A stretch of DNA of 64,000 nucleotides from Alphaproteobacteria bacterium (GCA_963555825.3 CAUVXB020000001.1:1984001-2048000), one strand, 5' to 3'; counted from the first letter of the stretch, positions 1,076-5,298 are shown. Notes: generated from the sequence alone by a model not told the origin. Numbers and translations: made by a program.

Positions 1076-1576
1076 ATGCGACCAGAATTGACAGTTGAAT
1101 CTCTCGAAGCGCTTAATGCCACTGAAGAGGATGTTAAGGCGCTCGGCGACGCGTACGAGACGCTCTCGGCTCGCTTTATGCCGGAGGCAACCGCCATTAT
1201 GGCCGAGGCCGCCATCGACCATCCGGAGGCGCCTGGAAACATCGTCGGCTTTGGAATTGGCGAGAAAATATCGAAGGGAGAGTCGACGGGACGTCCGGCG
1301 GTGAAGGTCCTCGTGCGCGCGAAGGTCGATCCGGACCGACTGACCGAAGCCACCATGGTCCCGGACGCGGTCGATGGTATTCCCACGGACATCGACGAGA
1401 CCGGAGAAATCGTCGCCTACCAGTTCAGGGGCAGGCACCGGCCAGCGCCGGGCGGCGTGTCCATCTTCAACTGTAGAGTGAACGCGGCGGGGACGCTCGG
1501 GTGCTGGGTCGACGACGCAAGCGATAAAAGCGCTAAATACGAAAAAAAGAACAAGAAGATCAAGCGTGCGTCTTGA
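1076..1576 (+). CDS. Nal1-like trypsin-fold serine protease, N-terminal part (0 frame)
   Basis: GNIVGFGIGEK...PAVKVLV...VPDAVDGIPTDIDETGEI then RPAPGGVSI...AGTLGC, typical of the N-terminal half of this family; stops before the catalytic His. Confidence 0.75.
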   Translation: MRPELTVESLEALNATEEDVKALGDAYETLSARFMPEATAIMAEAAIDHPEAPGNIVGFGIGEKISKGESTGRPAVKVLVRAKVDPDRLTEATMVPDAVDGIPTDIDETGEIVAYQFRGRHRPAPGGVSIFNCRVNAAGTLGCWVDDASDKSAKYEKKNKKIKRAS

Positions 1577-2163
1577 GCAACAACCACGTGATCGCCATGG
1601 TCAATGACGGCTCGCCGGGAGATCCAATCTCCCAGCCTGGAAGGCTCGATGGCGGGGTATGTCCAGACGATGTCATTGCCAGGCTCTTGCGTTTCGTTAC
1701 GATGAACTTTTCCGGCGGGAGCAACGAGGTCGACGCGGCGATCGCGCAAGCTGAATCCGAAAGAGTCGTCGAATCTCGCATCTTGCGTGCGGCAGGCCAA
1801 CTCGACAAGCTTGTACCGCCGGAAGTCAAAGGCGCGGTCAACATGAAGGTACAGAAGAGCGGCCGAACGACCGGGTGGACACACGGAGGGATCGATCTGT
1901 TGGGGGTCACCGTCAACGTGAACTATGCCCCTCCCGGCGCCCCGCCCAGAATCGCTCGCTTCGACAACCAATTCCGCGTCACCGTCCCTGGCGGAGGGGC
2001 CTTCAGCAAGGCCGGCGATTCCGGATCGTTGGTGACGACCGCGGAGAACCACCCGGTCGGACTGTTGTTCGCGGGCGGCGTCGGCGCGGGCGGCCTCGAC
2101 GTAACGTTCTGCAACCACATCGAGCTCGTCTTGTCCGCATTGGGCGTTACGATTCACTATTGA
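1573..2163 (+). CDS. Nal1-like serine protease, catalytic part (-1 frame relative to the upstream ORF)
   Basis: Triad motifs LSNNHV (His), VDAAIA (Asp), GDSGS (Ser), plus QPG, KSGRTTG and VGLLFAG. Confidence 0.8.
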   Translation: MSNNHVIAMVNDGSPGDPISQPGRLDGGVCPDDVIARLLRFVTMNFSGGSNEVDAAIAQAESERVVESRILRAAGQLDKLVPPEVKGAVNMKVQKSGRTTGWTHGGIDLLGVTVNVNYAPPGAPPRIARFDNQFRVTVPGGGAFSKAGDSGSLVTTAENHPVGLLFAGGVGAGGLDVTFCNHIELVLSALGVTIHY

Positions 2164-2184: not shown

Positions 2185-2544
2185 GTGGACGGGCCAACAT
2201 GGGGATTGATTTGGGTGTGGCGGCCGTTTGCACATGGGGGAGCGCCGTGCTACGCATGGCTGGCCGCTGGCGTAGCCGTCCTGCTGTTTGCCGGCTCCCT
2301 TGCGGCGGACGGCCAACTCGAAGTTACGGACGACATGGCTATCGAAAAGGTATTGGAGCGGCAACGGGAAGCGCTGATGCGCCGTCCCGAGGCCGTCGGC
2401 GTCGGAATCGGCGAGCGCGCGGGCAAGCCGGCGATCGTGCTCATGATCAAACGCAAGACGCCCGAGGCGCTGGCGGGGCTGCCCGCTGAAATCGACGGTC
2501 ATCCCTTGATCGTCGAAGAGGTCGGCGAGGTCACCGCGTACTGA
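2185..2544 (+). CDS. small, probably exported protein resembling the protease N-terminal domain; start uncertain
   Basis: Hydrophobic segment then VGVGIGE...PAIVLMI...LPAEIDGHPLIVEEVGEVTAY, which aligns by eye with VGFGIGE...PAVKVLV...VPDAVDGIPTDIDETGEIVAY. Confidence 0.65.
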   Translation: MDGPTWGLIWVWRPFAHGGAPCYAWLAAGVAVLLFAGSLAADGQLEVTDDMAIEKVLERQREALMRRPEAVGVGIGERAGKPAIVLMIKRKTPEALAGLPAEIDGHPLIVEEVGEVTAY

Positions 2545-3965: not shown

Positions 3966-3975
3966 CTCGGGACGC

Positions 3976-5298
3976 CTATCGGAGCGCGACCAGATCGCCC
4001 TCGCTGGTGAAGACATAGACCGTGCCGTTGGCCACGGCAGGCGGCAAGTCGACACCGTCGGGGAGCTCGATCTGTCCCAAAATCCGCCCCGAATAGGGCG
4101 AAATCGAAACCGCCTGGCTGTTGGTGCCAACCACGATCAAGCGGTCGCTGACCAGGATCGGTCCGGTCCAATAGATCGGATCCTCGCGATCCTCCGGATC
4201 CTCGTAGCGCGGCAGCGATCGCACCCAACGAATGCGTCCGTCGCGCCGCGACAGGCACAGAACGTCGCCATCGGTCGTCAGCAGGAACAGAAAGTCGCCG
4301 GCAATCCACGGCGTCTGGACACCCGACACCTCCTGATCCCAAAGGCGATCGCCGGTGCGTAGGCTGATCGCGACCAGCCGCCCCGAGAAGCTCACCGCAT
4401 AGACCCTGTCGCGGTCGATCACCGGGCTGCCGTTGATGTCGCTCAGCACCGACGAAGCACCCAGCCGCGTGCCGAACGACAGGGTATCGCTCCAGGCGAC
4501 GCGGCCGTTGTCGGCGCGCAGTGCGAACAATTCGCCCGACGAGTAGGCCGTGACCACAAGCCCGCCCGCGACCGCCGGGCTCGCCGTGCCCAACAGCTGT
4601 GCGTTCTCGGTGATGCCGCTGTGCGTCCAAAGTACGCGGCCATCGAGCGCACTCAAGGCGAACAGCTGATTGTCATAGCTGACGACGAACAGCCGGCCCT
4701 CGCTCAACGTCGGCGACGAACGAATTGGCGCGCCGACCGCGACACGCCAGATCTCGCTGCCGTTCGACGCGTCGAACGCGACGACTTCGCCGACGCCGGT
4801 GGCTGCGAAAACGCGGCCACTGCCGTACGCGATACCGCCGCCGAAGGCATCGTCCTCTTCATCGTCGGGCAACGCGCCGGCTTCCCAGACGCGTCTGCCG
4901 GTCGACGCGTCGTGTGCGCTGATCGTGCTCTCGGCATCGAAAGTGTAGACCCGGCCGTCGGCGACGATCGGCGGCGCCATCAGACCACGGCCTTCGGAAT
5001 CGCCTTCGCCGGCGTCGGCGCTCCACGCCCGCGCCAACGGTCCCGGCGCCGCAATATGGTGCATCGCGTGGTTTGCATAGCCACCACTTTGCGGCCAGCT
5101 GAGGTTGAGCGTCGGTTTGGGCAGTCGAACCTCGAGATCGGCGATGCGTTCGTCAGGCTCCGGCGCGCGTTCGAGCGCCAGGACCGAAATCCGCTCGCCG
5201 GGCAGCGGTGGCGCCTCCGGCTCGCCCAGATAATCGGGAAGCAGGTCGCAGGCGCCGAGTGCGAGCGCGAACGTTGCGACAGCGGCCGCCCGCTTCAT
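3976..5298 (-). CDS. bamB: PQQ-like beta-propeller lipoprotein (BamB-like)
   Basis: Lipobox LGAC, repeated A.D...G...W propeller motifs, yfgM-bamB-der gene order. Confidence 0.85.
   Translation of the reverse strand: MKRAAAVATFALALGACDLLPDYLGEPEAPPLPGERISVLALERAPEPDERIADLEVRLPKPTLNLSWPQSGGYANHAMHHIAAPGPLARAWSADAGEGDSEGRGLMAPPIVADGRVYTFDAESTISAHDASTGRRVWEAGALPDDEEDDAFGGGIAYGSGRVFAATGVGEVVAFDASNGSEIWRVAVGAPIRSSPTLSEGRLFVVSYDNQLFALSALDGRVLWTHSGITENAQLLGTASPAVAGGLVVTAYSSGELFALRADNGRVAWSDTLSFGTRLGASSVLSDINGSPVIDRDRVYAVSFSGRLVAISLRTGDRLWDQEVSGVQTPWIAGDFLFLLTTDGDVLCLSRRDGRIRWVRSLPRYEDPEDREDPIYWTGPILVSDRLIVVGTNSQAVSISPYSGRILGQIELPDGVDLPPAVANGTVYVFTSEGDLVALR

Follow-up and report, generated by a model that had tools for sequence, protein, structure and literature searches.

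NARROW LEAF 1 of rice (NAL1; PDB 8PMM, 7Y77 and 8HAU; Pfam PF25608 and PF25819) is a protease that bears on crop yield, and its regulation is being studied actively. In PMC12012508, residues 89-172 of NAL1 are described as the 'ATP-binding domain' (ABD), with R120, R122, K123, K139 and other residues in the ATP-Mg binding loop. According to the same source, the contacts of the NAL1 trimer run from the ABD to the protease domain between neighbouring subunits, and ATP binding leaves the activity of the enzyme unchanged. The pro region of alpha-lytic protease (PDB 2PRO, 3PRO and 4PRO) is a two-domain segment of 166 aa that is covalently N-terminal and is cleaved off the secreted enzyme. In PMC2289522 it is described as a potent inhibitor that works in trans, and PDB 1boq describes an interaction of its C-terminus with the active site. 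Separately encoded copies of a pro- or N-terminal domain that regulate an enzyme have been described as the Plasmodium SUB1 propeptide-like protein (PMC6993865) and Drosophila crammer (PMC3551606). In the literature searched, which was limited in extent, we found no published description of a bacterial family of such partners.

In this study, we analyzed a window of 64,000 nt from an alphaproteobacterial genome (GCA_963555825.3 CAUVXB020000001.1:1984001-2048000), in which a small gene lies directly downstream of a gene for a Nal1-like protease. In its model, the domain of the small protein superposes best on the ABD/NAL1_N domain of NAL1, and its neighbouring protease is related by sequence to the NAL1 family. 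However, the domain is encoded here as a separate gene with a predicted secretion leader, besides the copy that is built into the protease, and an equivalent of the NTD of NAL1 is absent. The models also suggest a fold similar to that of the alpha-lytic pro region; among catalytic domains of solved structure, the proteases served by that region come closest after NAL1. Unlike that pro region, the domain found here is single, measures ~70 aa and has a gene to itself; the protease encoded upstream is leaderless and retains an N-domain. The SUB1 propeptide-like protein and crammer express the same concept, but they are of the subtilase and papain-like clans and have been shown by experiment to inhibit, whereas the present case concerns a putative regulator of an S1/NAL1-type protease. 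The small gene, too, stands apart from the protease gene and is homologous to the pro-like N-terminal domain of its putative cognate protease. The pair is a member of a widespread and unannotated module of a protease and an N-domain copy, with an unusual split between a partner that looks exported and a protease without a leader. Bacterial relatives of NAL1 very often carry such an extra NAL1_N/ABD copy, either separate or fused.

The small gene and the neighbouring protease

The features of the locus are collected in Table 1. On the + strand, the small ORF spans 2185-2544 and gives 119 aa if it is read from GTG 2185, which is where the earlier note had placed its start. The gene itself was upheld, but that start is probably 30 nt too early. 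The small protein has 22 homologues of 55-98% identity in a large protein database, and ten of the 22 are exactly 109 aa long and begin with MW(R/Q). In a related locus (L009), a TAG stands immediately 5' of the GTG equivalent to GTG 2215, and nucleotide conservation across four loci extends from that GTG to ~15 nt past the stop codon of the small gene. On the basis of these three observations GTG 2215 is the most likely start, and the protein then has 109 aa.

Table 1. Features of the protease and small-gene locus, in positions of the 64,000-nt window
Feature	Position	Strand	Description and basis
Upstream ORF of the protease	1076..1576	+	166 aa; N-domain at ~1205-1420 with GEIVAY at 1403-1420, then the first strands of the catalytic domain
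A7 run with the frame break	1542..1548	+	A_AAA_AAG (1543-1549) in the zero frame; A8 and one ORF in relatives
Downstream ORF of the protease	1573..2163	+	196 aa; catalytic His 1585-1587, Asp 1732-1734, Ser 2020-2022
Small partner gene	2215..2544	+	109 aa from GTG 2215 (most likely start), stop TGA 2542-2544; ORF list, homologues, dN/dS
Signal-peptide-like N-terminus	2215..2307	+	Residues 1-31, MWRPFAHGGAPCYAWLAAGVAVLLFAGSLAA, then DGQ; read from the sequence, kept in homologues
NAL1_N-like / pro-region-like domain	2335..2541	+	Residues 41-109; predicted helix, beta-hairpin, short helix and final strand; AF2, VIA-align, hhalign
C-terminal motif GEVTAY	2524..2541	+	Very C-terminus; equivalent to the GEIVAY that ends the protease N-domain

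The small ORF is a real gene. The dN/dS ratio across four loci (Nei-Gojobori) was 0.24-0.33 for the whole gene and ~0.2 over the domain, values that point to purifying selection. Contigs from two RNA libraries cover the region (X16 at 1715-2700 and X17 at 2275-2700) and also extend into the convergent der gene. These contigs are weak evidence of transcription of the small gene, since carry-over of DNA is possible. No intrinsic terminator was found 3' of the small gene on the + strand.

The hydrophobic segment of the 109-aa form occupies residues 10-31 (APCYAWLAAGVAVLLFAGSLAA, then DGQ). The leader as a whole has one Arg and ~20 hydrophobic residues and ends in SLAA:DGQ (the colon marks the break), with an acidic flank afterwards; in the homologue alignment, the hydrophobic stretch is kept and ends in a site resembling A-x-A/V-A-A:D. 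In a search of NCBIfam, the only match was to FtsL (14.5 bits), and it fell on this hydrophobic segment. From the leader and the acidic flank that follows it, the domain is predicted to lie outside the cytoplasm, and the small protein is likely to be exported by a Sec-type leader with its domain in the periplasm.

The earlier note had remarked that the protease lacks such a segment, and this was borne out. None of 120 close homologues of the protease begins with a hydrophobic segment, and in the window the frame is open for only 6 codons ahead of the protease ATG. The same split is seen in an independent clade represented by G577, in which a leaderless protease is followed by a 107-aa partner with a leader. 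Thus, judging from the predicted leaders, the partner looks exported and the protease leaderless in two independent clades, which is a conflict of compartments. This arrangement, with a signal on the partner and none on the protease, speaks against a plain protease/anti-protease pair in the cytoplasm. Export of the protease as a Tat 'hitch-hiker' was considered and rejected because most homologues have just one Arg in the leader.

The neighbouring gene encodes a Nal1-like S1 protease with the trypsin fold and a His-Asp-Ser triad. The two ORFs of the window scored below the Pfam cut-offs, the upstream ORF reaching 25.7 bits with NAL1_N (cut-off 27) and the downstream ORF 18 bits with Nal1_C; the protease of L009 scored 27.4 bits with NAL1_N. 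The upstream ORF is 96% identical to residues 1-161 of an intact relative of 362 aa (P0177), and the downstream ORF is 95% identical to its residues 167-362. The triad residues H165, D213 and S309 are invariant in 47 members of the protease family and are all present in the window. The family profile matches NAL1 (E 1.8e-13) and, after it, SGPA, lytic endopeptidase, alpha-lytic protease and SGPB. Many of the protease homologues of ~365-400 aa (P0197-P0291) have an acidic N-terminal extension with one or two F-E-E-F-D-V-like motifs, which is absent from the protease clade of the window.

In relatives the protease is a single ORF, of 340 aa in L009/L017, 356 aa in L016 and 362 aa in P0177. In L019 it is an intact ORF, open at its 5' side, that reads for 266 aa to the contig end. 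There the sequence is tacg-A8-gaac instead of the tacg-A7-gaac of the window, and the L019 protein (...YEKKEQEDQAC...) is the exact product of a -1 shift at the in-frame A_AAA_AAG of the window. Contigs assembled from two DNA runs, each belonging to a different study (X1, depth 74; X10, depth 8.5), span the A7 site without an indel, so the frame break is no error peculiar to this assembly. The earlier note had proposed that the N-domain is produced by two routes, from the small gene and from the unshifted ORF of the protease. This proposal is not supported: the split is a strain-level difference of one base in a homopolymer, and because the relatives have A8 and one ORF, it belongs to this lineage and is no design feature of the module. 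The A_AAA_AAG is a classic -1 slippery heptamer. From the sequence, the break could represent a pseudogene, a phase-variable tract or programmed slippage. Since it is present in two DNA data sets, the partner may currently be without a full-length protease in this strain.

Domain homology, fold and the C-terminal tail

The stand-alone copy of the protease N-domain that the earlier note had recognized was confirmed by two kinds of comparison. In BLASTP, the small ORF and the ORF that carries the protease N-terminus share 26/72 identities (36%; E 5e-9). In hhalign, the profile of the small protein (A2) matched that of the protease family (A4) with a probability of 98% and an E value of 3e-13 over 55 columns. 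These results place the similarity beyond chance and indicate that the last ~70 residues of the small protein are homologous to the N-domain of the adjacent protease. The Pfam family NAL1_N (PF25608) has a gathering score of 27 bits; for the small protein of the window, Pfam returned no family at E<=1, and partner ORFs from other loci scored 24.3, 17.6, 16.5 and 13.1 bits with NAL1_N. A search of PDB sequences with the small-protein profile gave noise only (an antifreeze protein, E 0.12) and no match to a pro region. The ESM Atlas search returned clusters without names, labelled only 'hypothetical protein'.

An AlphaFold2 model built from a 23-sequence alignment reached a pLDDT of ~85 over residues 50-115 of the 119-aa form. 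Its structural comparisons agree with the homology to the N-domain, the nearest folds being the ABD of NAL1 and the pro region of alpha-lytic protease. The best informative Foldseek rows were NAL1 (probability 0.91) and the alpha-lytic pro region (0.96-0.98), both with a weak E value of 0.07. In VIA-align, the model superposed on residues 92-172 of NAL1 with a Z score of 7.1, which is below 8, and an rmsd of 2.1 over 64 residues (23% identity). It superposed on residues 18-93 of the pro region (2pro_C) with a Z score of 7.0 and an rmsd of 2.4 over 70 residues (14% identity). Ribosomal protein uS3 came next at Z ~6, and Z ~7 is a range that common alpha/beta arrangements reach. The Z scores are therefore modest by themselves and gain weight from the profile homology seen with hhalign. 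The model thus suggests for the domain a fold of the class of the NAL1 ABD and the alpha-lytic pro region. The predicted hairpin loop of the small protein (GIGERAGKP) is shorter than that of the NAL1 ABD.

The C-terminus of the small protein is placed exactly at the end of the protease N-domain. In hhalign, its last residue (Y) aligns with Y117 of the protease, where the N-domain ends and the junction reads GEIVAY:QF. The ending GE(I/V)(V/T)AY that had been noticed in both segments was recovered by BLASTP, as GEVTAY in the small protein and GEIVAY in the protease N-domain. A118 and Y119 (119-aa numbering) are invariant in 23 sequences. Among 117 small members of the wider family, 38 terminate exactly at G-x3-A-x, in which the A is usually followed by Y, F, H, Q or L. 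When the tail of a partner is compared with the junction of its own protease, the pairs read GEVTAY with GEIVAY, GKPKAQ with GKFVAL and GRFKKL with GRFRAF. This likeness within pairs is consistent with mimicry of the junction by the tail, but it is seen in a handful of pairs and could also be explained by common descent.

Linkage, genomic setting and fusions

The small gene begins 51 nt 3' of the protease. In each of the four close loci whose sequence reaches far enough upstream (the window, L009/L017, L016 and L019), it lies directly 3' of the protease. The protease is present in 13 of 401 genomes in a class-wide alphaproteobacterial sample. With an HMM made solely from the window clade, small ORFs adjacent to the protease were detected in 6 of the 12 remaining genomes (E 3e-5 to 2.5e-15). 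The second HMM round, for which G278 was outside the training set, added G278 and raised the count to 7 of 12. Two further of the 12 loci had weak candidates (E 1e-3 and 1e-2), and in 3 of the 12 no partner was found beside the protease by these HMM searches. In these loci the partner lies upstream of the protease in four cases and downstream in the others, and most partners are ~75 aa long and leaderless. Other samples added the pair of G577 and that of G004, in which a 71-aa partner lies downstream. The gene-neighbourhood survey thus answers the question of co-occurrence that the earlier note had raised: the pair recurs widely, in close loci and in other genomes, and natural fusions of its parts exist as well.

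The module is sparse, being present in 4 of 401 genomes phylum-wide and in 4 of 13 in the window's own family. Peptide-pattern scans of metagenome and genome collections returned few loci (1 and 3), the patterns being clade-specific.

The base composition of the locus differs from that of its surroundings. The G+C content of the cassette (~1030-2560) is 0.43-0.60, compared with ~0.68 around it, and is 0.43-0.52 at 800-1200. The cassette of the window sits between an SDR gene and der, which are ~100 bp apart in the relatives G002 and G005, and in L016 it adjoins rpmB. Similarity between the loci stops ~50 nt upstream of the protease start and ~15 nt past the stop of the small gene. No direct or inverted repeats were found to flank the cassette. 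On the evidence of sequence context, the two genes appear to form a cassette that has landed at different chromosomal sites. In PADLOC, the small protein gave noise only (E 0.02-0.04) and the proteases gave no match. Runs labelled as sponge metagenome are among those that contain this DNA.

In the window, the 3' end of the SDR gene (100-960) differs from its 273-aa orthologue in L018, the last ~30 codons being replaced by ~70 unrelated ones (~745-960). This replacement fits insertion of the cassette into the SDR 3' end or a rearrangement there. In L009 (G007), a Phd/VapC-like toxin-antitoxin (VapBC-like) pair and a partial 3' duplicate of der of 89 codons precede the cassette (466-1091 and 1122-1391), and a complete der gene follows it. 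This layout points to recombination at der or to an insertion that duplicated its target. In L018, an alphaproteobacterial MAG, positions 3966-4170 retain no more of the small gene than its 3' half (residues 58-113), which follows an intact SDR gene directly. Neither the leader and 5' half nor the protease is present, and the contig ends there. This copy looks like a decaying fragment that a deletion left behind at the site which the cassette occupies in the window.

The domain belongs to a much larger family. When 1.84 billion proteins were searched with the partner profile, 5854 cluster representatives matched at E<=1e-3, of which 777 reached E<=1e-10. Of the best 149 representatives, a count that leaves out the window's own cluster, 51 are at most 85 aa long, 66 are of 86-140 aa, 22 are of 141-300 aa with tandem copies, and 10 are longer. 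At least 18 residues precede the domain in 54 of the 117 small members; 32 of these 54 have a hydrophobic stretch, and 15 of the 32 a lipobox-like motif. One member, P0023, is a lipoprotein with three tandem copies of the domain.

In natural fusions, an extra domain is joined to the N-terminal side (extra domain, N-domain, protease; P0057 and P0059), or one or two extra domains follow the protease (P0032, P0058 and P0148). When the C-terminal domain of P0032 served as the query, 76 proteins matched, ~67 of which have 425-453 aa with the order N-domain, protease, extra domain. Two members of this subfamily of ~67 fusions, which comprises P0032 and P0292-P0358, are named by their sources as proteins of Anaerolineales or Chloroflexota MAGs. 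The model of P0032 has a pLDDT of 82.7 and a pTM of 0.70, with low confidence at the junction of the N-domain and the catalytic domain (84-108) and in the last ~9 residues. Its modelled residues 1-342 superpose on residues 90-452 of NAL1 (ABD+SPD) with Z 25, and its catalytic domain superposes on SGPB and alpha-lytic protease with Z 17-18.

Possible roles of the small protein

By analogy with the systems described above, the small protein is probably a dedicated binding partner or regulator of the protease. In our best explanation, which we consider to have an even chance of being correct, an exported paralogue of the N-domain, encoded in a two-gene cassette, docks on the protease as a regulator. 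The free-standing domain would be an old paralogue of the N-domain of the Nal1-like protease, placed behind a Sec-type leader. It would dock on the catalytic domain of the protease, in the way that the NAL1 ABD sits on a neighbouring subunit and the alpha-lytic pro region on its protease. We infer this docking from those two precedents and from the propeptide-like inhibitors. The free tail (...GEVTAY-COOH), as a mimic of the junction between the N-domain and the catalytic domain, would be offered to the substrate cleft, and the partner would act as an inhibitor or as a helper of folding or assembly (chaperone). The likeness of tail and junction within pairs fits this reading. Its main difficulty is topology, the partner looking exported and the protease not; the modest Z scores, the frame break of the protease in this strain and the 3 of 12 related loci without a partner also count against it.

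If the copy proves to be a dedicated inhibitor, chaperone or cage subunit, this would name the function of a large unannotated family of small proteins. The principle of the propeptide-like inhibitor would then extend to S1/NAL1-type proteases, and there would be a hint at the role of the ABD in NAL1 itself. Because its partner looks exported and its protease is both leaderless and frame-broken, the present case offers a natural test of the need for the two proteins to meet.

It is also possible, although rather unlikely in our estimate, that the free domain is a subunit of an assembly and no inhibitor. It would take the place of the ABD in a NAL1-type cage and cap or remodel the oligomer, changing its stoichiometry or gating with catalysis left unblocked. 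In PMC12012508, it is the contact of the ABD with the protease domain of the next subunit that builds the NAL1 trimer, and ATP is without effect on activity; the best match of the small domain is this same ABD. The fusions, in which one or two additional domains are joined to the protease on its N-terminal or C-terminal side, and the close superposition of a fused relative's N-domain and protease on NAL1 point in the same direction. However, a role in assembly leaves the C-terminal likeness to the N-domain/catalytic junction unexplained, and it meets the same compartment conflict as the regulator that we prefer.

A further reading, which we consider improbable, is that the partner is a periplasmic guard. 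In such a case, the leaderless protease would leave the cell by a non-Sec route or by lysis and attack the envelopes of neighbours, and the exported partner would neutralize it in the periplasm of the producer, so that the two would form a mobile pair resembling an effector and its immunity protein. This agrees with a leader on the partner only in two independent clades and its absence from all the protease homologues inspected. The low G+C content of the cassette, its different sites (SDR/der in the window, rpmB in L016, a partial der duplicate in L009) and the origin of the DNA from dense host-associated communities (sponge metagenomes) are in line with it. However, neither the protease nor its surroundings showed a secretion-system or delivery domain, and PADLOC found no match. 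Moreover, most related partners are leaderless, which does not fit periplasmic immunity across the family. One elaboration of the idea, which we regard as a long shot, is that the mobile leaderless protease and its exported pro-domain mimic follow an effector/immunity logic among sponge-associated bacteria, in which slippage at A_AAA_AAG could dose or phase-vary the full-length protease.

The small protein might instead be a diverged duplicate with an unrelated job, the exported domain binding a different envelope target, for instance a ligand or some other S1 protease of the periplasm, and its adjacency to the protease being a legacy of the duplication. We hold this to be quite improbable. 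In its favour, the predicted compartments of the two proteins differ, and in this strain the protease is frame-broken and the small gene is intact and constrained. The L018 remnant of the small gene is without a protease, though the contig ends there and the copy, which has lost its 5' half, looks like a decaying fragment. Against an unrelated job stand the adjacency in every close locus and in distant clades, the existence of fusions, and a tail that still copies the junction of this very protease.

That the small ORF is a chance ORF in G+C-rich DNA and no gene has a negligible probability: long spurious ORFs are common here on both strands and the small protein is without a Pfam match, but the conserved homologues, the low dN/dS, the conserved start with a stop directly 5' of it in L009 and the size of the domain family have effectively refuted this reading. 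The example of such a frame in the window is an ORF of 361 aa on the - strand (1417-2502), which overlaps both halves of the protease and most of the small gene and in all likelihood is spurious, an open frame due to the high G+C content.
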